DNA from: a virus
Length of the DNA: 64,000 bases
Virus genome (UHGV): UHGV-0023958
Direction: 5' to 3' (one strand)
Shown here: positions 7,476-59,662 of the stretch, one piece after another
Numbering within the stretch: position 1 is the stretch's first letter
Layout of the letters: each line of letters starts with the position of its first letter
Notes under the pieces: generated by a model
Databases searched by the model: none
The model's input: only the letters and a program-made list of their open reading frames with translations
Told to the model about the DNA's origin: nothing
Translations under genes and position numbers: made by a program

Positions 7476-7591
7476 TTGTTAAAACATAAAGCGGTTATAA
7501 ATTATAATCGTTTTTTTAAATTTGTTTTCTATGCGTGGATAAGCTACGCGTGAAAATATTATAAAATATATTTTATAAGGAGAAAGAAATT

Positions 7592-9257: not shown

Positions 9258-9259
9258 GC

Positions 9260-9288
9260 TTAAAATTGCTTGACAATACAAAAATAAT
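9260..9288 (+). promoter_or_regulatory. sigma-A type promoter: TTGACA, 17-nt spacer, TGaTATAAT
   Basis: -35 at 9260-9265 and an extended -10 at 9280-9288. It drives the endonuclease cassette. Confidence 0.55.
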
Positions 9289-9393
9289 ATGATATAATAT
9301 AGATGTTCTTGGTGGGACAGGGACGGCCATCCTTTCTGTGTGCCACAACATGCAGATTACCACCTTGAAACATTTGCCTTTGTGGAGGTTATT

Positions 9394-10890
9394 ATGCAGA
9401 ACATTGATAGTGAAAAAATATATCAATATTATATTATTGAAAATCATTCTCGTCAAGAATCAGCTTCGATTTTTGGTATTTCGGAAAGCAAATTAAAAAA
9501 GATTTGCTCTGATAATGGTTGGAAGAAGGATAGAAAACTTCATAATCAAAATATTGGAAAATCGAAAGCTTATAAATTTGATAGAGTAAATGAATTAAAA
9601 CAATTATATATTGATGAAAATAAAACCAGAAAAGAAGTTTGCGAACGTCTTGGCTTGTCTCTTGCGGTATTTAAAAGGATTTGTCGTGAAAATGACATTG
9701 GAAAAACAGACGAAAATCGTATTTTTAATACAAACAAAACAATTTCAGAAAAATATGGCGAGAGTAATTTTGGGAAATTAACTTCAAGAGAAGAAATAAT
9801 TAACAAAAGAAAACAAACTAATTTGAAAAAATATGGGTGTGTTAACCCAACTCAAAACGAAAAAATTCAAGAAAAAATGAGGTTGTCTAATTTAAGAAGA
9901 TCACCAAATAAATCAAGTATTGGATTGACAATAGAAGAAGTCAATAACATTGTTTCTTCTAAAGATAGTTTTGAAAAATTTGTAAAAGATAGAGATGTTC
10001 ATACGACAGTTCAAATAGCAGAAATGCTTGGATATGGTCTTTCTGCAATAGAGCAATATATTGCTTTTTATAATTGTAGAGACTTAATAGATCCTATGAG
10101 TTCTGCGCCAGAACAGGAAGTAAGATTATTTATAGAATCTCTGGGTGTTAAAACAGAACATACCAGACAGATAATTCCACCTTATGAAATAGATATTTAT
10201 TGTCCAGATTATAAAGTCGGAATTGAATTCAACGGAACGTATTGGCACTCTTCTTTGAGAAAACAAAAATCTTATCATGAAGATAAAGCGAAAGCCGCTG
10301 AAAGAGCAGGTATTCGTTTGATACAAATTTATCAATATCAATGGGAAGATGAAAATTTAAGAGAAATACTTAAATCTGTTTTGAAAATTACATTCGGCAA
10401 AGTTGATTCTCGTATTTATGCAAGAAATTGTGAAGTTAGAGAAATAACAAACGAAATTGCAAAACCTTTCAATAATAAAAATCATCTTCAAGGGCATAGA
10501 AATGCAGCAATAACCTATGGTTTATATCATAATAATGAACTTGTTCAACTTATGAGTTTTTCTAGACATAATAAATATGAATGGGAAATCATCAGAGGTT
10601 GTCCTGGTTCTAATAATGTTGTTGTTGGCGGAGTTTCAAAACTCTTTAAACATTTTATAAAAAATTATAATCCAAATCAAGTATTCAGTTATTGTGATTT
10701 TAATACTTTTGACGGAAAAGGATATGAAGCAATCGGGATGAAGTTTATTGGATATACCGGTCCAGATTTGCGATGGATTATTAACGGCGATGTTAAGCAT
10801 CGTAGTCCGTCACACCATAAAGAATATAAAGAAAACGCAGAAGCCGTTATATGGGGCGCGGGCTCTAAAAAATATTTATGGACAAAATAA
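9394..10890 (+). CDS. DNA-binding protein with a C-terminal DUF559/Vsr-like (PD-(D/E)xK superfamily) endonuclease domain. It looks like a freestanding homing-endonuclease-like moron.
   Basis: …YEIDIYCPDYKVGIEFNGTYWHS…HEDKAKAAERAGIRLIQIYQY matches the DUF559 pattern (xIVDFYCP…EVDGxxH…D..R…L…G..VLR). Two HTH-like repeats sit at the N-terminus. The gene has its own promoter and terminator. Confidence 0.5.
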   Translation: MQNIDSEKIYQYYIIENHSRQESASIFGISESKLKKICSDNGWKKDRKLHNQNIGKSKAYKFDRVNELKQLYIDENKTRKEVCERLGLSLAVFKRICRENDIGKTDENRIFNTNKTISEKYGESNFGKLTSREEIINKRKQTNLKKYGCVNPTQNEKIQEKMRLSNLRRSPNKSSIGLTIEEVNNIVSSKDSFEKFVKDRDVHTTVQIAEMLGYGLSAIEQYIAFYNCRDLIDPMSSAPEQEVRLFIESLGVKTEHTRQIIPPYEIDIYCPDYKVGIEFNGTYWHSSLRKQKSYHEDKAKAAERAGIRLIQIYQYQWEDENLREILKSVLKITFGKVDSRIYARNCEVREITNEIAKPFNNKNHLQGHRNAAITYGLYHNNELVQLMSFSRHNKYEWEIIRGCPGSNNVVVGGVSKLFKHFIKNYNPNQVFSYCDFNTFDGKGYEAIGMKFIGYTGPDLRWIINGDVKHRSPSHHKEYKENAEAVIWGAGSKKYLWTK

Positions 10891-15500: not shown

Positions 15501-15535
15501 AACTCCGTTAAATGGTCAACGGGGTTGTTTTTATA
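15501..15535 (+). terminator. Rho-independent terminator: 9-bp stem AACTCCGTT/AACGGGGTT followed by a T-run.
   Basis: Read from the sequence. Confidence 0.4.
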
Positions 15536-15567
15536 TAAAAACAAAATCATTTAAAGGAGAAAATATT

Positions 15568-28860: not shown

Positions 28861-29883
28861 ATGGGAAAGCGCACCACTGTATATAACGCTGGTCTTACCG
28901 ATAATTGGGACAGTGTTTCTAAAGAAAATAAAGGGTTGGTTGACGAGTTTGTTGAATATCTTGTATCGGTTAATAAAAGCCCTCAAACAATTCATCAATA
29001 TCATGAACAGTTAAAAGTATTTTTCTGTTGGAATGAAAAGCATAATCAAAACAAATTTTTTGTTGATTTAAAGAAAAGAGAACTAATTAAATTTTTCGGT
29101 TATCTTTCAAATGATTTGAAAGTAAGTCCAAACAGAGTTTGTTCGCTTCGTTCTGTTTTAAGCAGTCTTTCAAATTTTATTGAAAGAATTATGGACGAAG
29201 ATTATCCAACTTTTAGAAATATTGTAAAAGTGCTAGAACCCGTTACAAAAACTTTTGTAAGAGAAAGACCAATTTTGACAATGGATCAAATCAGAGAATG
29301 TTTGGTAAAGCTCGAAGAGGCGAAGAAATATCAGGTCGCTGCATGTCTTGCTGTTTTAGCTGGTAGTGGTATGAGAAAAAGCGAAGTTGTTCAAATGAAA
29401 ATGAGCGACTTTACAGAAGATAGATTGGTTTATGGCGGTCGAGCTTATGAATCTGAAAAGATTAGAACAAAAGGTAGAGGGAAAGAGGGAAAGGTCGTAA
29501 CGAGAATTATTTTTAGGACACTTGTTCCCCTTGATCATTATATTGAATTATGGAAACAAAAAAGAGAAGAACTTGGTATTAAGAGCGAGTGGATGTTTGT
29601 TGCATATCACGACGGTTCTTATCAACAGGCAAACGTTGCCACAATTAATTCGTTTGCGAGAACAATCGGAAATTATCTTGGAGAAGATTTCTTTCCGCAT
29701 AACGTTCGGCATACAACTTCAACTGCTTTGGAGCTTGCTGGGTATCCGATTGATGTTGTTCAATCTATATTTAGATGGGCAGATCCAAAGATGGTTAAGT
29801 ATTATTCTAATATTAGTGAAACAGAATCATTGAATAGCTTTTTCGATAAACTTAACGAAAAAGAAGAAAACAAAGAAGAATAA
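28861..29883 (+). CDS. tyrosine site-specific recombinase / integrase (XerC/D-like)
   Basis: C-terminal HNVRHTTSTALELAGYPIDVVQSIFRWADPKMVKYY carries the HxxR…Y catalytic signature. An SSB-like N-terminal core-binding domain is also present. Confidence 0.75.
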   Translation: MGKRTTVYNAGLTDNWDSVSKENKGLVDEFVEYLVSVNKSPQTIHQYHEQLKVFFCWNEKHNQNKFFVDLKKRELIKFFGYLSNDLKVSPNRVCSLRSVLSSLSNFIERIMDEDYPTFRNIVKVLEPVTKTFVRERPILTMDQIRECLVKLEEAKKYQVAACLAVLAGSGMRKSEVVQMKMSDFTEDRLVYGGRAYESEKIRTKGRGKEGKVVTRIIFRTLVPLDHYIELWKQKREELGIKSEWMFVAYHDGSYQQANVATINSFARTIGNYLGEDFFPHNVRHTTSTALELAGYPIDVVQSIFRWADPKMVKYYSNISETESLNSFFDKLNEKEENKEE

Positions 29884-51437: not shown

Positions 51438-51646
51438 TGAAAGTTGTTTTGTATACTGTGCATTGTCCAAAATGTAAAATTTTAGAAAAGAAGTTAGAAC
51501 AATCAAAAATCAAATATGATGTTTGTGAAGATTTGGATTTGATGTTGGCAAAGGGATTTCAAACGGCTCCAGTTCTCGATGTTGACGGTAGAATTATGGA
51601 ATTTAAGGAAGCCGTTCAATGGGTTAAAGAACAAATTGGGGGTTGA
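51437..51646 (+). CDS. nrdH: NrdH-like glutaredoxin/thioredoxin-fold protein
   Basis: A CPKC redox motif near the N-terminus, 69 aa, immediately upstream of nrdD. Confidence 0.5.
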   Translation: MKVVLYTVHCPKCKILEKKLEQSKIKYDVCEDLDLMLAKGFQTAPVLDVDGRIMEFKEAVQWVKEQIGG

Positions 51647-53568
51647 TGCGTATGGAAATAAGTATTAAGCTTGATTCGGATTTCGAAGAACAAATTAAGT
51701 ATTTAAAAAACAAATACGGAGATGAAATTACAAAAATCAATGGATTGTCAGATGGGCAATTAGATTATACTCACTTTATTGACAATTTTATTGATAGTGA
51801 CAATGTTGCAAATGCCACAATTGATCCAAATGCAAATGCTGGCACTAAAGATGTCCGTGGTTTACTTGATGAAATGAATAAACCACATTCGAAATTGTTG
51901 AGTTTAAATAAAATATACTATGAGGTCAAGAAAAAATACGGAAAAGAATTAGCTAATAAATGGCTCGAAGATGAATGGTCTGGTGCTTTATATTTGCATG
52001 ATGCCCCGTCATCATCTTTTTATTCTTATTGCTACGCTTATGAGTTACAGGGTTTGGCAGAAAAAGGTTTGTATTTTTTGCCAAAAAGTAACACCGAACC
52101 TCCGAAACATTTAACAACCTTTTTCGCTCATTTACGAGAATTTATTGTGTGGGTATCCAATAGAACCGCTGGTGCGTGTGCGCTTCCAAGCTTTTTCGTT
52201 TATTCCTGGTATTTTTGGAATAAAGATGTTCAATCTGGATATTATTTAAAAGATCCCGAATATTATAGAAGACAGATGTTTCAGCAATTTATTTTTGAAG
52301 TAAATCAAATTCATACAAGAATTGTTCAAAGTGCTTATACGAATTTGATTATTATGGATAGAAATTATATTACTGAAATTTTTGGCGGAAGAGAATTTCC
52401 AGATGGAAGTTTAGTAATTGATCACGTTGAAGACATTATTGAACATCAAAAAGCGTTTATGGAAACCGAATGTGAAATTAGAAAACAGGTATTCCATACA
52501 TTTCCAGTTTATACGTATTCCCTTCTTTATCAAAATGGAAAATTTGTAGATGAAGAATTTGCGCGTTGGTGTAATAAACAAAATCTCCAATGGTATGATA
52601 GTAATTTTTATGTTGGAGATAGCGTTACTAATCTTGCTTCGTGCTGTAGAATGTTAAACGATTTGACAAAACAGAAACAATTCCAGTCAAGTATTGGCGG
52701 AAGTCTTGTTGAAATCGGCTCCGTCAAAGTAAGCACAATTAATCTTATGAGAATTGCCATTGAATCAAATGGTGATAAAGATAAGTTTATTGAAATTTTA
52801 ACCGATAGGGTTAAAATGAATATGTTTGTTCTTGATAGAGTTCGTCATATTATTCAAAGGAACATAGAAAAGGGGTTACTTCCAAATTATTCGTACGGTG
52901 TTATTAATTTGGAAAAACAAACCACGACTAATGGTTTAACTGCAATGTATGAAGCCATTGAAAAAATGGGAATGACAGAAACAGATGAATTTGGTTATGT
53001 AAAATATACCCAAGAAGGAATTGATTTTGCTAGTAAAATAATGGATACCGTAAATTATTTGCAAGATCATGCTGGTTTTGATTATAATGTTTCTCTCGAA
53101 ATTATTCCAGCAGAATCTGCAAATGTGAAATTGTGTAAAAAAGATAATATTTTATATAATTTACATGATAAATTTATTTATTCTAATCAATGGACGAGTT
53201 TAATGGCAAAATGTAGTATGAAAGAAAGAATTAAACTTTCGTCTCTTCTCGACAAAAAAGCTGGCGGTGGTCAAATACTTCACATTTCATTGGAGGGTGC
53301 AAGATTAACAGAAGAAGAGAGTTGGAATATGTTAAATTATATTGCTAAAAGTGGTGTAATTTATTTTGCATTTAATCCAAAACTTTCCTTATGTGAAAAA
53401 CAACATACTTTCTTTGGCGATGTTTGTCCTATTTGTGGAAGACCAAAGGTTGACGAAGCAAGTAGAATTGTTGGATATTTGGTTGCTACTTCTACGTATT
53501 CCAAAGATAGAAAAGAGGAATATGAGAATAGAAAATGGTATGCAATTGGCGATGACCAATATTTATAA
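51646..53568 (+). CDS. nrdD: anaerobic ribonucleoside-triphosphate reductase (class III RNR)
   Basis: C-terminal CPICG zinc site plus the glycyl-radical motif SRIVGYL; about 640 aa. Confidence 0.8.
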   Translation: MRMEISIKLDSDFEEQIKYLKNKYGDEITKINGLSDGQLDYTHFIDNFIDSDNVANATIDPNANAGTKDVRGLLDEMNKPHSKLLSLNKIYYEVKKKYGKELANKWLEDEWSGALYLHDAPSSSFYSYCYAYELQGLAEKGLYFLPKSNTEPPKHLTTFFAHLREFIVWVSNRTAGACALPSFFVYSWYFWNKDVQSGYYLKDPEYYRRQMFQQFIFEVNQIHTRIVQSAYTNLIIMDRNYITEIFGGREFPDGSLVIDHVEDIIEHQKAFMETECEIRKQVFHTFPVYTYSLLYQNGKFVDEEFARWCNKQNLQWYDSNFYVGDSVTNLASCCRMLNDLTKQKQFQSSIGGSLVEIGSVKVSTINLMRIAIESNGDKDKFIEILTDRVKMNMFVLDRVRHIIQRNIEKGLLPNYSYGVINLEKQTTTNGLTAMYEAIEKMGMTETDEFGYVKYTQEGIDFASKIMDTVNYLQDHAGFDYNVSLEIIPAESANVKLCKKDNILYNLHDKFIYSNQWTSLMAKCSMKERIKLSSLLDKKAGGGQILHISLEGARLTEEESWNMLNYIAKSGVIYFAFNPKLSLCEKQHTFFGDVCPICGRPKVDEASRIVGYLVATSTYSKDRKEEYENRKWYAIGDDQYL

Positions 53569-53573
53569 TAAAA

Positions 53574-54527
53574 ATGGACAACAGAAGATTATCAACTATT
53601 GAAAATGAAAGAGTAAAATTAGATTATAATATTGTTAAAAATAAAATGGTTGATTGCAAAAATCAAAAAGATTTAGCAAAACAACTTGGTTGTGGTGTTA
53701 ATAAATTAAGAGAATATTTGATTGAAAACGAATTATATGATGAATATTGTTCTATTCATAATATTCCAAATAAAGCAAGAAAAGAAATTGTTTGCTGTGT
53801 TTGTGGTGAAAAGAAATCTGTTTATTTATTGAACGAAAAACCATATTGTAAGAAACATTATAATCAAATGTATCGATATGGCAAAATATATGAAAATACA
53901 ATATATGATAAAAATGAATATATTTTTGAAGAAGATATTGTAAAAATCATATTAAAAGATAAATATCAAAATTATAAAAGCGAATCAATCATAGACGTTT
54001 CCGATTATGAAAAGATTTGTAATTACAAGTGGTACGAATCTTATGGATATTGTGTAACGAAAAGTAATAATTGCGATGAAGGTATTGATATAGCAAATAT
54101 TCTATTTGATAATTATGCAGATAGATTCGATCATCAAAATCATAACAAATTAGATAATCGTAGGTGCAATTTGCGACCAGTAACAGCACATCAAAATTCA
54201 ATGAATATGGGCAAAAAATGCACGAATACTTCAGGAGTTACTGGTATACAAAGACAAAATAAAACAAGTGAAAAGTGGATTGCAACTATAGCTTATAACT
54301 ATAAACCCATATGGCTTGGGGTTGATTATAGTTTCGACAGAATGGTAATCGAAAGATTAAAAGGGGAAGCAAAATATTTTAAAGAATTTTCTCCAAATTA
54401 TAATTTAGAGAAAAAATTAATATGTTTAAATTATGTTTCCAGAGATGATAACTTGAATCATTATATAGAAATGGATTTAAATGGAAATATTATAACAAAT
54501 ATTGTTGTTTCTAATGATTTAAAATGA
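53574..54527 (+). CDS. HNH homing endonuclease with an AP2-type DNA-binding domain, inserted between nrdD and nrdG
   Basis: DHQNHNKLDNRRCNLRPVTAHQNSMN is the HNH signature. SGVTGIQRQNKTSEKWIATIAYNYKPIWLGVDYSFDRMVIERLKGE is AP2-like. No ribosome-binding site was seen. Confidence 0.8.
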   Translation: MDNRRLSTIENERVKLDYNIVKNKMVDCKNQKDLAKQLGCGVNKLREYLIENELYDEYCSIHNIPNKARKEIVCCVCGEKKSVYLLNEKPYCKKHYNQMYRYGKIYENTIYDKNEYIFEEDIVKIILKDKYQNYKSESIIDVSDYEKICNYKWYESYGYCVTKSNNCDEGIDIANILFDNYADRFDHQNHNKLDNRRCNLRPVTAHQNSMNMGKKCTNTSGVTGIQRQNKTSEKWIATIAYNYKPIWLGVDYSFDRMVIERLKGEAKYFKEFSPNYNLEKKLICLNYVSRDDNLNHYIEMDLNGNIITNIVVSNDLK

Positions 54528-55000
54528 AAATCAAACAATTAATATATGAAGATTTTGTCAATTATAAAAAACCATCATTGTTCTTGGGAACTACCGCCTG
54601 TAGCTTTAAATGTGAGAAAGAGGCTAATTGCATTGGAATGTGTCAAAATTCAGATCTTGTTAAAAGCAAAACAATTGAAATTGATAATAAGATTCTAATC
54701 GATAGATATTTAAATAACGGTATTACGGAAGCCGTTGTTATTGGTGGATTAGAACCACTTGATACATTTGAAGATACTTTGCAATTCATTAAAGACTTTA
54801 GAGAAAAATCGGATGACGATATTGTTATATATACAGGTTTTAATGAAGACGAAATTGAAGATAAAATAGTTATTTTAAAAAAGTTTAAAAATATTATAGT
54901 GAAGTTCGGGCGCTATCGTCCGAACTTCCAAAAGCATTTTGATGAAGTGCTTGGAGTGGAATTGGCTTCTCCAAATCAATATGCTAAGAGAATGAGTTAA
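54524..55000 (+). CDS. nrdG: NrdG-like anaerobic RNR activating protein (small T4-type)
   Basis: Cys cluster CSFKCEKEANCIGMC, GGLEP like the GGEP motif, 158 aa, in synteny with nrdD. Confidence 0.5.
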   Translation: MKIKQLIYEDFVNYKKPSLFLGTTACSFKCEKEANCIGMCQNSDLVKSKTIEIDNKILIDRYLNNGITEAVVIGGLEPLDTFEDTLQFIKDFREKSDDDIVIYTGFNEDEIEDKIVILKKFKNIIVKFGRYRPNFQKHFDEVLGVELASPNQYAKRMS

Positions 55001-56240: not shown

Positions 56241-57050
56241 ATGATACCTAATAAAACAAAAGCATCTGAATATAGGGTGCGGACATTAGATAGAAATGAT
56301 TTAAATGAGAAAGGAACGATTTATATTGGTTAGGGCGGTACTTCTACTATTGATAAAGTTGAAAATATTTCCAATGTAGCGGCAATTAGTAAGCCAGATG
56401 ATGATTTAAACAAATCTGGTTATTATGCTTTAACGCTTGGAGGAAATGCAAATCAAGATGGAATTTGGGGCAGATTTTTACATGAGGTAGATTGCCAAAT
56501 AACACCAACTTTATTTCAATTAAACGAAGGAGCGCCATCTCTTCATAATCCTTATAAATATGTAATTCGCGGTGGGTATAAGTCGTTAAATATTAAAAAA
56601 AGTATATTTGATTCAACACTTACATATATAATGGATTATAATTCAAATTTATCATCTTTTTCTTCTGTTGATTAGAAAATATTTGCAAAATTATCTATGA
56701 GGGGATTTGTAGAATATGATACTCCGTTTGAAGTATATTCTTCTTTTGTTGCCTCTCAGAAGACTGGAAGTTCTTGGGAGTTATATCCTTTGAATTTTTC
56801 ACCGATTAATATTACAAAATTAAACGATAATTATATGCGAAATTTCCAAAGCATTGTTTTTTGTTCAAATGATACACCGTGGCAAGAAACTGCGGATGGT
56901 TTTCAATTAAACCTTCATGCAATCGGTATGGGAAATACATTAGAAGAGCAAAAATTATATTATTAGAAAAATGGCACTGGTGAAATTCTAACTGCTAATC
57001 TATCAAATATTTCATAGATTAGAGTAACTCAAATGTCTATTATTTTTTAA
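56241..57050 (+). CDS. hypothetical protein with 4 in-frame TAG codons
   Basis: AAAGGAG site. Frame 0 is open to TAA at 57048, with TAGs at 56331, 56673, 56964 and 57015. The end abuts a terminator. Confidence 0.4.
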
Positions 57051-57061
57051 AATAAATTTTA

Positions 57062-57100
57062 AGAGGAGTGTCAAAATTACTTGACATTCCTCTTTTTTTA
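57062..57100 (+). terminator. Rho-independent terminator: 13-bp stem AGAGGAGTGTCAA/TTGACATTCCTCT followed by T7. Its 3' arm contains the -35 box of the next promoter.
   Basis: Read from the sequence. Confidence 0.6.
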
Positions 57101-57109
57101 TGGTAAAAT
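57081..57109 (+). promoter_or_regulatory. sigma-A type promoter: TTGACA, 17-nt spacer, TGgTAAAAT
   Basis: Overlaps the terminator stem. Confidence 0.45.
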
Positions 57110-57139: not shown

Positions 57140-57403
57140 ATGACAACAAAGCCAGTAATCAAAGAAAACTTTATTGAATTTCTTAAAACTAATTATCCAG
57201 AATGTTTTGAAAGCGGAACACCGATAGTAGAAAACGCTTTAGAAGCTTTGATTATATTAAAAAAGAGAGAGTATACAAAACAATTTTGTGCGTCGCTTTC
57301 AAAAGATGTTATGCAAGTTAAAACGAATAAGAAATTCAAAGATCAGTTAAAAGATATTGAATATAAAATTCGTAAAAATCATATTGATTTAGGAGAGAAT
57401 TAA
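57140..57403 (+). CDS. hypothetical protein (87 aa)
   Basis: AAGGAGA site. Confidence 0.5.
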   Translation: MTTKPVIKENFIEFLKTNYPECFESGTPIVENALEALIILKKREYTKQFCASLSKDVMQVKTNKKFKDQLKDIEYKIRKNHIDLGEN

Positions 57404-57726
57404 TGGAACAATTAAAAGAAAGACCTATATTTATAACCGCTAAACATGTTAAAAATACGTTGAATGGAAAGACTTACGGGGAGATTAGAGAGATTCTGGA
57501 AATCGATCCAGGAGAACATGAATTACTACCGAACGGAGAGAAAATTCCAGATGACGTAGTTTGTATTGTTAACAAATCTGAAGAATGGCCTTGCACTGGA
57601 GGTCTTGTAAACGTAGAAATTCGTTTCACCGTGGGAAACAAAGAATACGGGCAAATGCTTATGGCCAAACTTGGGCGTGTAACCTGTAGATTCACCCGTC
57701 CGCCTTTGGAAGCTTTAGAAGGTTAA
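57403..57726 (+). CDS. hypothetical protein (107 aa)
   Basis: GGAGAGA site; start overlaps the previous stop as TAATG. Confidence 0.5.
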   Translation: MEQLKERPIFITAKHVKNTLNGKTYGEIREILEIDPGEHELLPNGEKIPDDVVCIVNKSEEWPCTGGLVNVEIRFTVGNKEYGQMLMAKLGRVTCRFTRPPLEALEG

Positions 57727-57731
57727 AAATT

Positions 57732-58529
57732 ATGTCATTTCGTGAATTTTATAATGAAGATTGTTTTATAAATATGAAAGGGTTTAAAGATAAATCAATA
57801 AACCTTATTTTAACTTCTCCGTTTTATAATACGAATAAAAAAGCAGGGAAGAAAAATACGCTTGAAAACACAGAAATCAAAAAAGGAACATATTCTTATA
57901 TTAGATATGACGAACACGTCGATAATATGACGGACGAAGAATATGAAGATTTTACAAAAAGATTATTTAATGAATTTAATAGGATTGTTGTAAACAACGG
58001 TGTTGTTCTTTATAATCTTTCTTATAGCAACGATAATCCAGCAAATTTGTTTTCATTAGTTAATATGATTTGCGAAGAAACGAATTGGATGATTGCCGAT
58101 GTTATTGTTTGGAAAAAGAAAAGTGCTTTGCCGAATAATTGCTCTCCAAATCGCCTAACTCGTATCTTTGAGTTTATATTTGTTTTTTGCAGAAAAGGCG
58201 AAGAAAAAACTTTTTATGTAAATAAAAGGGTGATTTCATTACGCGCAACAGGGCAGAAATCGTATGAAAATATCTTTAATTTTGTCGAAGCGAAGAACAA
58301 TGACGGTCCGTGTCCGTTGAATAAAGCGACGTATTCAACTGATTTGTGCAAACAGTTACTTCGAATTTATGCAAATCCAGAAGACAAAGATTTTGTTGTT
58401 TACGATCCTTTTATGGGAACAGGGACAACTTTGGTTGCATGCAAGGAAATGGATATAAATTGTTTTGGTTGTGAAATTTCTAAAAAACAATGCGAGTGGA
58501 CGCAAAATCGCTTGACAAATCAAAACTAA
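57732..58529 (+). CDS. DNA methyltransferase, amino-MTase of N4-C/N6-A type with beta-class motif order
   Basis: Motif IV LILTSPFYN lies upstream of motif I DPFMGTGTT. Confidence 0.7.
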   Translation: MSFREFYNEDCFINMKGFKDKSINLILTSPFYNTNKKAGKKNTLENTEIKKGTYSYIRYDEHVDNMTDEEYEDFTKRLFNEFNRIVVNNGVVLYNLSYSNDNPANLFSLVNMICEETNWMIADVIVWKKKSALPNNCSPNRLTRIFEFIFVFCRKGEEKTFYVNKRVISLRATGQKSYENIFNFVEAKNNDGPCPLNKATYSTDLCKQLLRIYANPEDKDFVVYDPFMGTGTTLVACKEMDINCFGCEISKKQCEWTQNRLTNQN

Positions 58530-58540
58530 TGTGATATAAT
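58512..58540 (+). promoter_or_regulatory. sigma-A type promoter (TTGACA, 17-nt spacer, TGaTATAAT) for the suppressor tRNA
   Basis: -35 at 58512-58517 and -10 at 58535-58540; about 70 nt upstream of the tRNA. Confidence 0.5.
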
Positions 58541-58562
58541 ATATATGTTATAAACGCGTGAT

Positions 58563-58580
58563 GTCAAATCTAGATTTGAC
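58563..58580 (+). promoter_or_regulatory. perfect 18-bp palindrome GTCAAATCTAGATTTGAC between the promoter and the tRNA; candidate operator or leader hairpin
   Basis: Nine-plus-nine perfect inverted repeat. Confidence 0.4.
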
Positions 58581-58610
58581 AAAACGTGATTATATAAAAT
58601 TACTGTACAG

Positions 58611-58685
58611 TGGGGAATAGCATAACGGTAGTGCGGTGCTCTCTAAAAGCACTCTGTGTCGGTTCGAGCCCGACTTCCCCCGCCA
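58611..58685 (+). tRNA. amber suppressor tRNA, anticodon CUA (reads UAG), with Gln-like identity elements
   Basis: A manual cloverleaf gives a 7-bp acceptor with a T1·C72 mismatch. U8; D stem GCAT/GTGC with G18G19; anticodon stem GTGCT/AGCAC with loop CT-CTA-AA (U33, CUA at 58643-58645, A37); 5-nt variable loop; T arm GTCGG-TTCGAGC-CCGAC; G73; encoded CCA. G2-C71, G3-C70, G10, G73 and a weak 1:72 pair are the E. coli tRNA-Gln identity set. Confidence 0.8.
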
Positions 58686-58718
58686 GTAACGATTAAAAAT
58701 AAAATGGAGGTAATGCTT

Positions 58719-59093
58719 ATGTCGTAGATACGTGAATCTTGTTATTTTTATACTTAGAAGGCAGCATCTTATGTCGGGAGTAGAGATTATGAAATCAAAT
58801 ACGATCCCGGCGTTTTCGTTGTATTTTCTGAAGATTTTTATCCCTTGGACGATGACAAATACCAATCGTGTTTATGCAGGAGTTTGAATTTGGCGAACGA
58901 ATATAACACAAATGTTTCTTATTCAGACAAGGAAGATTTGGCCAAAGCAATTTATTTCGATTTATATCAGAAACCAGATGAAACCATTTTTGTCTGCGAA
59001 AATGATGCAATTGCCGATGTGGCAAACAGGTATTTTGGCGAAGATAGTATTATAAACATTAAAAAGGTAATTGAGGAATTTGAAGAAAAATGA
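58719..59093 (+). CDS. hypothetical protein with TAG at codons 3 and 13, directly downstream of the suppressor tRNA
   Basis: GGAGG site 8 nt upstream of ATG 58719. Frame 0 is open to TGA at 59091. A TTG start at 58845 is the shorter alternative. Confidence 0.35.
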
Positions 59094-59563
59094 ACAGAGA
59101 GTTTGTGAGAAATTTTAACAGAATCAATAAGAGCAATTATTCCAAACAAGATATTCAAACGATGATTGCACTGACGAATATTATGCAGGGTAAATTGTCG
59201 AAAGATATGGAACTCGGTTTTCCGAGTTTAAAACATTATGATAATCCAGAGTTATTTCCGAATGGAATGTTGGTCAAATTGAATTATGAAAAAATTAAAC
59301 AACGGAATCAAAATGATTTGACAGAAGATTATAAAAAGTTTGTTGAAGAAAACAAAGATAATGAATTTCATCTAATCAGAGATGACGAAGATACGGGGTT
59401 AGTTGCACTAGAAGAAGATAAAAGAAAAACCGTTCTCGATGGAAAAGAAGTTGATTGTCCAAAGTTCTTATTCGATATGCTTTCAGATTTGCTTGTAAAA
59501 GATAAAAATAATGATTGGGTACCAGCGTACGAGTTTGAAGGAAAATTTTTAGAAAAAAAATAA
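59090..59563 (+). CDS. hypothetical protein (157 aa)
   Basis: GAGGAA site; ATGA overlap with the previous stop. Confidence 0.5.
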   Translation: MNREFVRNFNRINKSNYSKQDIQTMIALTNIMQGKLSKDMELGFPSLKHYDNPELFPNGMLVKLNYEKIKQRNQNDLTEDYKKFVEENKDNEFHLIRDDEDTGLVALEEDKRKTVLDGKEVDCPKFLFDMLSDLLVKDKNNDWVPAYEFEGKFLEKK

Positions 59564-59582: not shown

Positions 59583-59611
59583 TTGACAAAAAGATTTTAA
59601 AGTGATATAAT
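59583..59611 (+). promoter_or_regulatory. sigma-A type promoter (TTGACA, 17-nt spacer, TGaTATAAT) for the replication module
   Basis: Read from the sequence. Confidence 0.5.
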
Positions 59612-59662
59612 AAAGAAAAAATGCAATCCGAAAGATTGCAAGATTATAAGGAGAAGAAATTT

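Follow-up and report, generated by a model that had tools for sequence, protein, structure and literature searches.

A palindrome upstream of a phage amber suppressor tRNA as the possible tip of a leader RNA hairpin

In the Escherichia coli tufB operon, tRNAs precede an mRNA, and supE, an E. coli tRNA-Gln with the anticodon CUA, is a natural amber suppressor. RNase III sites are known from the early region of phage T7 and, together with 5' stabilisers, from Bacillus phage SP82, and lac O1 and the roadblocks of CcpA and PurR are dyad operators that lie downstream of a start site. Here, we relate to these systems a locus in a 64,000-nucleotide stretch of the viral genome UHGV-0023958 (hereafter the window), in which a perfect palindrome lies between a promoter and the gene of an amber suppressor tRNA; the source is an uncultured gut phage that reads TAG as an amino acid. 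In such phages, TAG is read as Gln (bioRxiv 10.1101/2021.08.26.457843), and in the model of Borges et al. (the same preprint; later Nat Microbiol 2022) an early suppressor tRNA unlocks TAG-bearing late genes. A preliminary description of the locus had proposed that promoter and palindrome form a switch, with the timing of tRNA expression gating the translation of TAG-bearing genes and the palindrome serving either as a repressor operator or as a leader hairpin. The features so described are indeed present, and the interpretation as a whole is partly supported, the gating of TAG-bearing late genes by suppressor supply being already published by Borges et al. What the locus offers is a conserved and testable anatomy: a promoter of early class, a structured leader, the tRNA, and a presumably co-transcribed gene that would report suppression.

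The promoter and leader of the suppressor tRNA

The tRNA unit is headed by a plus-strand promoter of the sigma-70/sigma-A type with an extended -10 element (58512-58540), which matches the consensus at 12 of 12 positions and in addition carries the TG: TTGACA at 58512-58517, a 17-nt spacer, TG at 58532-58533 and TATAAT at 58535-58540. It stands exactly where the preliminary description had placed a TTGACA-N17-TGaTATAAT element overlapping the 3' end of the methyltransferase gene; this gene (PF01555, start most likely at 57732) ends with a TAA stop codon at 58527-58529, within the promoter spacer. Only three promoters in the window reach this quality (9270, 58512 and 59583, all on the plus strand), compared with ~0.01 in mononucleotide shuffles. 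Conservation was judged on 31 related sequences (21 distinct intergenic regions and 15 distinct leaders), which were gathered by scanning for exact matches to the anticodon arm, by searching with proteins and by looking up contigs, and variability per region was counted on a 6-kb alignment of 12 sequences. Both hexamers and the TG are unchanged in all 31, variation being confined to spacer positions, and in the alignment 2 of 29 promoter columns vary, compared with 35-48% of third codon positions. The claim of a dedicated promoter is thus borne out: the tRNA promoter is genuine, yet of an ordinary bacterial type. Judging from the end of the -10 element at 58540, transcription is predicted to start at ~58545-58547.

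The palindrome downstream of this promoter (58562-58581; halves TGTCAAATCT and AGATTTGACA) is perfect over 20 bp and holds a TTGACA hexamer in each arm. It had been given as an 18-bp palindrome at 58563-58580, 31 nt before the tRNA; it is indeed present, perfect and upstream of the tRNA, but it extends one base further on each side, and the gap from the 18-bp core to the tRNA measures 30 nt. By itself, such an element is only mildly improbable: perfect palindromes of 20 bp or longer arose in 28 of 200 dinucleotide-shuffled versions of the window, which itself holds three. The other two (7559-7578 and 15525-15544; TTATAAAATATATTTTATAA and TTGTTTTTATATAAAAACAA) are pure A+T and occupy short gaps between genes of the structural block; three palindromes of this length are more than the shuffles yield.

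The symmetry runs 13 positions further on each side than the palindrome, around which a repeat search delimits an imperfect inverted repeat of 46 nt (23+23 nt, 83% complementary). As RNA, the repeat is predicted to fold into a leader hairpin (58549-58594, plus strand; UAUAA.CGCGU..UGUCAAAU-[CUAG]-AUUUGACA..ACGUG.UUAUA) of 18 pairs, one of them G.U, in which the palindrome supplies the inner 8-bp stem and the 4-nt loop. Folded from 58545, the leader has a predicted free energy of -16.8 kcal/mol, with z scores of -3.5 (66 nt) and -4.8 (60 nt), and beats all or nearly all shuffles. The hairpin begins 20 nt after the methyltransferase stop codon and ~3 nt after the predicted transcription start, and is followed by the 3' part of the leader, UAAAAUUACUGUACAG (58595-58610, plus strand), which is unpaired in the folds, is presumably the leader seen by RNase P as its substrate, and ranks with the most variable segments of the unit (a 1-nt indel, 4 of 16 columns variable).

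All 15 distinct leaders form the same hairpin (-11.0 to -18.7 kcal/mol), with 98% of the cells in the hairpin alignment paired, and in the 12-sequence alignment 5 of 36 stem positions vary, compared with 4 of 10 unpaired hairpin positions. Changes within the 20-mer fall mostly in the 4-nt loop, where three of the four positions vary (CTAA is the commonest centre among relatives, which also have CTAG, CTCG, TTAG, TTTA and TTAA), and the 8-bp arms vary at 1 of 16 positions in 12 sequences and at 2 of 16 in 31. The hairpin arms are under selective constraint, and the centre is free. Farther out, a G.U in the second helix becomes G-C in five variants, and one pair changes from C-G to U-A in L003 (a double compensatory change), is U.G in L158 and is broken in L008 and L145; outer-helix G.U pairs are permitted in RNA and are mismatches in a DNA dyad. 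The perfect palindrome itself is found in only 2 of the 15 distinct leaders, those of L002 and of the window's own subgroup (a leader identical to the window's is present in 4 of the 31 sequences). An absence of the palindrome from relatives that keep the tRNA had been named as evidence against the proposal; the perfect form is mostly absent, but all relatives with this tRNA retain the inverted repeat, and of the roles suggested for the palindrome the leader hairpin fits best.

The suppressor tRNA (58611-58685, plus strand) was called by ARAGORN with the anticodon CUA and scores 52.8 bits against the Rfam family RF00005 (threshold 29); tRNA was the only RNA family that Rfam returned, whether the region was searched at E values of 1 or below or the whole window at the gathering score. 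The 5' end reads UGGGG and the 3' end CCCCC-G-CCA, giving U1, G2-G5, the discriminator G73 and an encoded CCA; position 72 is C, and 1-72 is unpaired. Three of its 75 columns vary, and L003 has a compensatory change from G-C to A-U in the T stem. We take U1, G2-G5, G73 and the CCA to resemble E. coli tRNA-Gln and the amber suppressor supE, and by this resemblance and the literature on code 15 the tRNA looks Gln-like, its charging being a prediction. Beyond it lie orf124 (58719-59093, plus strand) and orf157 (59090-59563, plus strand; no TAG, no family match), the last gene of the presumed unit. On the plus strand, the terminator scan made no call between the intrinsic terminator of the late block (57061-57094, plus strand; 14-bp stem and T-run) and the tRNA, and none from the tRNA to 59583 save a weak 5-pair candidate inside orf124 (58808-58821). 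Since no terminator is predicted between a weaker promoter at 57081 and the tRNA, the tRNA need not rely on its own promoter alone.

We give about even weight to the reading in which the palindrome caps an RNA hairpin in the leader of a suppressor-tRNA operon of early type. Host RNA polymerase would read this small operon from the consensus promoter at 58512, and the first ~50 nt of RNA would form the interrupted 18-bp hairpin with the palindrome at its tip, to be followed by 16 unpaired nt, the Gln-like amber suppressor tRNA, orf124 and orf157. As the tip of a hairpin near the transcript start, the palindrome would act as RNA, within the structured 5' leader of a tRNA/mRNA precursor, and the hairpin would probably be a processing or stability element, for example an RNase III-type double-strand cleavage site that trims read-through transcripts arriving from upstream, or a 5' stem-loop that shields and insulates the precursor until RNase P frees the tRNA. 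The tRNA would probably be made early and accumulate, and the TAG-bearing late genes would become translatable once the suppressor is present.

Several points weigh against this reading. Covariation is not significant, in that one pair has changed on both sides and 68 of 500 shuffles reach the score; the weakness is explained by relatives that are too similar (~95% identical across the tRNA-leader locus, which leaves the test underpowered), and the tRNA, whose structure is certain, likewise yields no more than one compensatory pair from these sequences. Pairing is disrupted by three or four of the stem substitutions: L003 T3>C and L158 A18>T, which are the two stem changes within the 20-mer and strike one and the same pair, L008/L145 C13>A, and L002 U49>G, which affects an outer pair. 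Conserved arms around a free centre are also the pattern of an operator with two half-sites. A 5' stabiliser is not obviously of much use in a leader that RNase P removes. Finally, the start site and the timing are predictions, the action as RNA and the kind of processing are what we infer, and host RNases suited to the hairpin are presumed.

Alternative roles of the palindrome and timing of the tRNA

The operator put forward in the preliminary description would have a dimeric phage or host protein bind TGTCAAAT-N4-ATTTGACA at about +16 to +35 of the predicted transcript and act as a roadblock that delays or tunes tRNA synthesis, a role that we consider unlikely. It would account for a strong dyad with nearly invariant 8-bp arms and a free 4-bp centre, and for its position between the promoter and the tRNA gene; the paralogous promoter at 9270 has no such element, which makes the element specific to the tRNA unit, and operators of the roadblock type exist. 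However, the palindrome lies outside the -35/-10/+1 core, and it is a single site: in the window, which is 64 kb of a ~148-kb genome and to which all copy and half-site counts refer, there is no second copy at up to three mismatches, half-sites are not in excess (24 observed, 24.9 expected), and a covariance model built from the 15 leader variants matches only its own site. G.U pairs and a compensatory change in the outer helices would be superfluous to an operator, and family searches assigned none of ten neighbouring proteins to a helix-turn-helix or other DNA-binding family, several small open reading frames (ORFs) among them having no match. Given also the rarity of the perfect form among relatives, the idea of a switch based on an operator is not supported. 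A scan of a viral collection with GTCAAAT-N4-ATTTGAC returned, among the matches listed, unrelated contigs, and is uninformative on extra copies in relatives.

The TTGACA hexamers in the arms raise the question of whether the palindrome is a by-product of promoter elements, or a decayed remnant of them. On the minus strand, the left arm forms part of an 11/12 site, TTGACA-18-TATATT (58567 to 58538), called by the promoter scan, from which antisense transcription could enter the methyltransferase gene, in competition with the tRNA promoter for the AT-rich -10 region that the two share. The promoter at 59583 likewise has ATTTGACA as its -35 region, and TGTCAA...TTGACA recurs as an inverted repeat at just one other place in the window (57069-57086), where it results from the overlap of the late-block terminator stem with the -35 of the next promoter. 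Yet the window holds no minus-strand genes, ~4.4 sites with at least 11 of 12 matches are expected by chance per window, the minus-strand site lacks the TG motif, and the conservation of the hexamers is not strict (the right arm of L158 has TTGTCA, the left arm of L003 TGCCAA). With no minus-strand genes, so many sites expected by chance and hexamers that are not fixed, the minus-strand site is probably fortuitous; the constraint on stem positions speaks against a functionless remnant, and we regard this explanation in either form as decidedly unlikely. A second plus-strand promoter built on the right-arm TTGACA was rejected, as no -10 is found at 16-18 nt (ATTACT, AATTAC, TTACTG) and the stretch carries an indel in relatives. 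The promoter at 57081-57109 has its -35 TTGACA within the 3' arm of the late-block terminator; relatives at 57061-57109 retain TTGACA and have an altered TGTCAA arm.

The company the tRNA promoter keeps bears on timing. Of the three perfect promoters, 9270 serves a homing endonuclease, 58512 the tRNA unit and 59583 the replication module; the last of these promoters (59583-59611, plus strand; again TTGACA-N17-TGaTATAAT) heads a module with a Sak4-like gene downstream, and its region is kept in relatives. Weaker promoters containing the TG precede nucleotide-metabolism genes (50867) and a block of small genes (57081), and the long structural blocks have none of these promoters. Phages that employ the host polymerase for their early genes provide an analogy for early-class promoters. 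Because the tRNA and the replication genes have promoters of one class, early synthesis of the tRNA is likelier than delayed synthesis, in agreement with the model of Borges et al., and the promoter class, which the tRNA unit shares with 59583 and 9270, does not suggest a delayed switch. Our literature search found no open paper that measured the timing of a suppressor tRNA or analysed its promoter.

Hairpins also follow the promoters at 59583 (59622-59640, plus strand; TGCAATC-CGAAA-GATTGCA) and 50867, with a weaker fold after 9270; the leader fold of 59583 stands out from shuffles (z = -2.35), and those of 50867 and 9270 have z scores of about -0.55. By eye, 9258-9310 and 58500-58552 are ~85% identical over ~50 nt (aaaatYgcTTGACAa..caaaa.taat.TGaTATAATata.atgtt), and the promoter at 9270 looks like a duplicated cassette of the tRNA promoter. 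A search for a replication origin gave no turn in GC skew near the palindrome and tRNA.

A PIN-like gene beside the suppressor tRNA in two lineages

The gene that follows the tRNA after 33 nt, orf124, has a GGAGG ribosome-binding site and in-frame TAG codons at positions 3 (58725-58727) and 13 (58755-58757), so that its translation depends on the suppressor with which it would be co-transcribed. There is no direct Pfam match at E values up to 1; hhalign aligns the protein at 97% probability with the C-terminal half of the PIN_4 domain in a phage PIN-PhoH protein, and a profile search reaches PF13638 'YlaK' proteins at 1e-7. In a structure model, the N-terminal 39 residues are of low confidence and the first catalytic Asp is uncertain. 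We describe orf124 as encoding a PIN-like domain protein.

Distant homologues of orf124 (35-56% identical, 108-112 aa) are found in other gut phages, between lysin and tape-measure genes. The homologue directly follows a tRNA-CUA of different sequence in L146-L150 and L188; a GIY-YIG gene or small ORFs intervene in L187 and L190, and in the more distant relatives L181-L185 and L189 there is no tRNA near it. The linkage of tRNA-CUA and PIN-like gene is thus seen in two lineages that differ in tRNA sequence and in genome position. The palindrome is absent from the second lineage; in its place, ~25-40 nt upstream of the tRNA-CUA, stands a 20-23-bp hairpin of unrelated sequence, which varies among these phages with pairing kept (including several G.U) and is mostly followed by a T-run. 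A long stem just 5' of the suppressor tRNA recurs between the lineages; its sequence does not. Directly before the long hairpin there is a conserved motif, CAATAAAACAAGGATTTTATTGGCATTTT, itself a small hairpin (3740-3770 in L146 and the equivalent place in L150, L187 and L190).

The second-lineage hairpin, with a 20-bp stem and T-run that are mostly those of an intrinsic terminator, lends some colour to the view that the hairpin in the window, which sits just past the methyltransferase stop codon, terminates or attenuates transcripts from upstream (from the promoter at 57081 through the small genes and the methyltransferase), in which case the tRNA would need its own promoter or antitermination. 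An intrinsic terminator was rejected on account of the missing U-tract (the tail of the hairpin is UAAAAUUACUG, from UAAAAUUACUGUACAG) and of the silence of the terminator scan at this place. Since it lies downstream of the tRNA promoter, it would also end the tRNA's own transcripts, and we judge termination or attenuation of any kind to be very improbable.

A bolder proposal is a self-monitoring code-switch module, in which suppressor tRNA and PIN-like nuclease share one transcript and the hairpin sets the supply. The nuclease would be translated only once the suppressor works (TAG at codons 3 and 13) and would then cut the hairpin-bearing precursor, feeding back on suppressor supply, or alternatively cut a host RNA that competes with suppression, such as a host tRNA or the release-factor-1 message; the hairpin would be the cis element, either as nuclease substrate or as operator. 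We keep this long shot on the table because the linkage of tRNA-CUA with the orf124 family is found in two lineages. No paper connecting a PIN domain with phage suppressor tRNAs was found in the literature search. That a suppressor tRNA and the gene of a small PIN-like protein go together repeatedly is the more unusual result here, and the one with the potential for something new.

Gene content and comparison with known systems

All genes in the window are on the plus strand, and reading TAG as sense merges ORFs into proteins of 2774 aa, the presumed tape measure with 35 in-frame TAGs, and of 1378 aa with 8. Genes that contain TAG include those for a GIY-YIG homing endonuclease (395-1621; 4 in-frame TAGs) and for tail, baseplate and fibre proteins; TAG is absent from the portal gene and several other virion genes, an HNH homing endonuclease (9340-10890), the anaerobic ribonucleotide reductase gene NrdD (51643-53568), the methyltransferase gene, and the Sak4-like and other replication genes. 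The contrast drawn in the preliminary description between a TAG-bearing tail and tape-measure block and TAG-free replication and nucleotide-metabolism genes broadly holds, with the correction that the portal gene and much of the virion module are TAG-free as well. Homing endonucleases are abundant in the genome: the HNH gene driven from 9270 sits as an insertion within the structural module, and another HNH endonuclease (53574-54527) lies between NrdD and a small ORF (54524-55000) that may encode the NrdD activase. Among structural-type genes there is also a tyrosine-recombinase/integrase-like gene (28861-29883; PHROG 1, 1e-31), in a genome that otherwise looks lytic and single-strand.

The relatives come from gut metagenomes. 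In close relatives, the block of methyltransferase, tRNA, orf124 and orf157 is constant; in many of them (compared with L015-L025; mean identity ~0.45-0.52) the ORFs at 56241-57050 and 57403-57726 are unaligned, and some have a methyltransferase of 281 aa with a Gp10_C-type gene before it. INPHARED searches with window positions 57500-59500 and with the portal protein gave no close phage, the best portal match being 24% identical; neither returned the phAss-1 group (PMC10607447), a similar kind of phage, as a close match, the presence of that group in INPHARED being unchecked. Fusobacterium phage phiKSUM was rejected as a close relative, as it shares the methyltransferase segment only, without synteny. 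A scan of 185,579 species genomes with two tRNA patterns, for a host or prophage, gave zero matches.

Among known systems, operators of the roadblock type share with the locus a perfect dyad between promoter and gene; they differ in that here no cognate regulator was found nearby, there is no second site, and the helix is of an RNA type with G.U. The RNase III sites and stabilisers of T7 and SP82 resemble the predicted hairpin in being interrupted stems of ~18-20 bp with internal loops, between units without terminators and below strong early promoters, but they have no sequence similarity to it. The PIN_4 (PF13638) PhoH-like/YlaK ribonucleases and VapC toxins differ from proteins of the orf124 type, which stand alone at 112-124 aa with no direct Pfam match and are encoded beside a suppressor tRNA in the two lineages.

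Co-transcripts of the tufB/supE type likewise combine a sigma-70 promoter with a leader that RNase P cuts away, an encoded CCA and a protein gene without an intervening terminator, and supE shares the Gln-like U1 and G73 and the CUA anticodon; what sets the present unit apart is a co-transcribed gene that itself needs the suppressor, the unusually strong 46-nt leader hairpin, and U.C rather than U-A at 1-72. The phages of Borges et al. are a further comparison, from a study that contains no promoter or leader analysis and in which the word 'promoter' does not occur. Like them, the phage studied here is a gut phage that recodes TAG and encodes a CUA suppressor tRNA, keeps its replication genes in the standard code and has its TAGs concentrated in tail and structural genes; unlike them, it has many late genes, including the portal gene, without TAG. 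With a promoter that is ordinary and a palindrome that is best read as part of a leader hairpin, their published model is refined, not changed.

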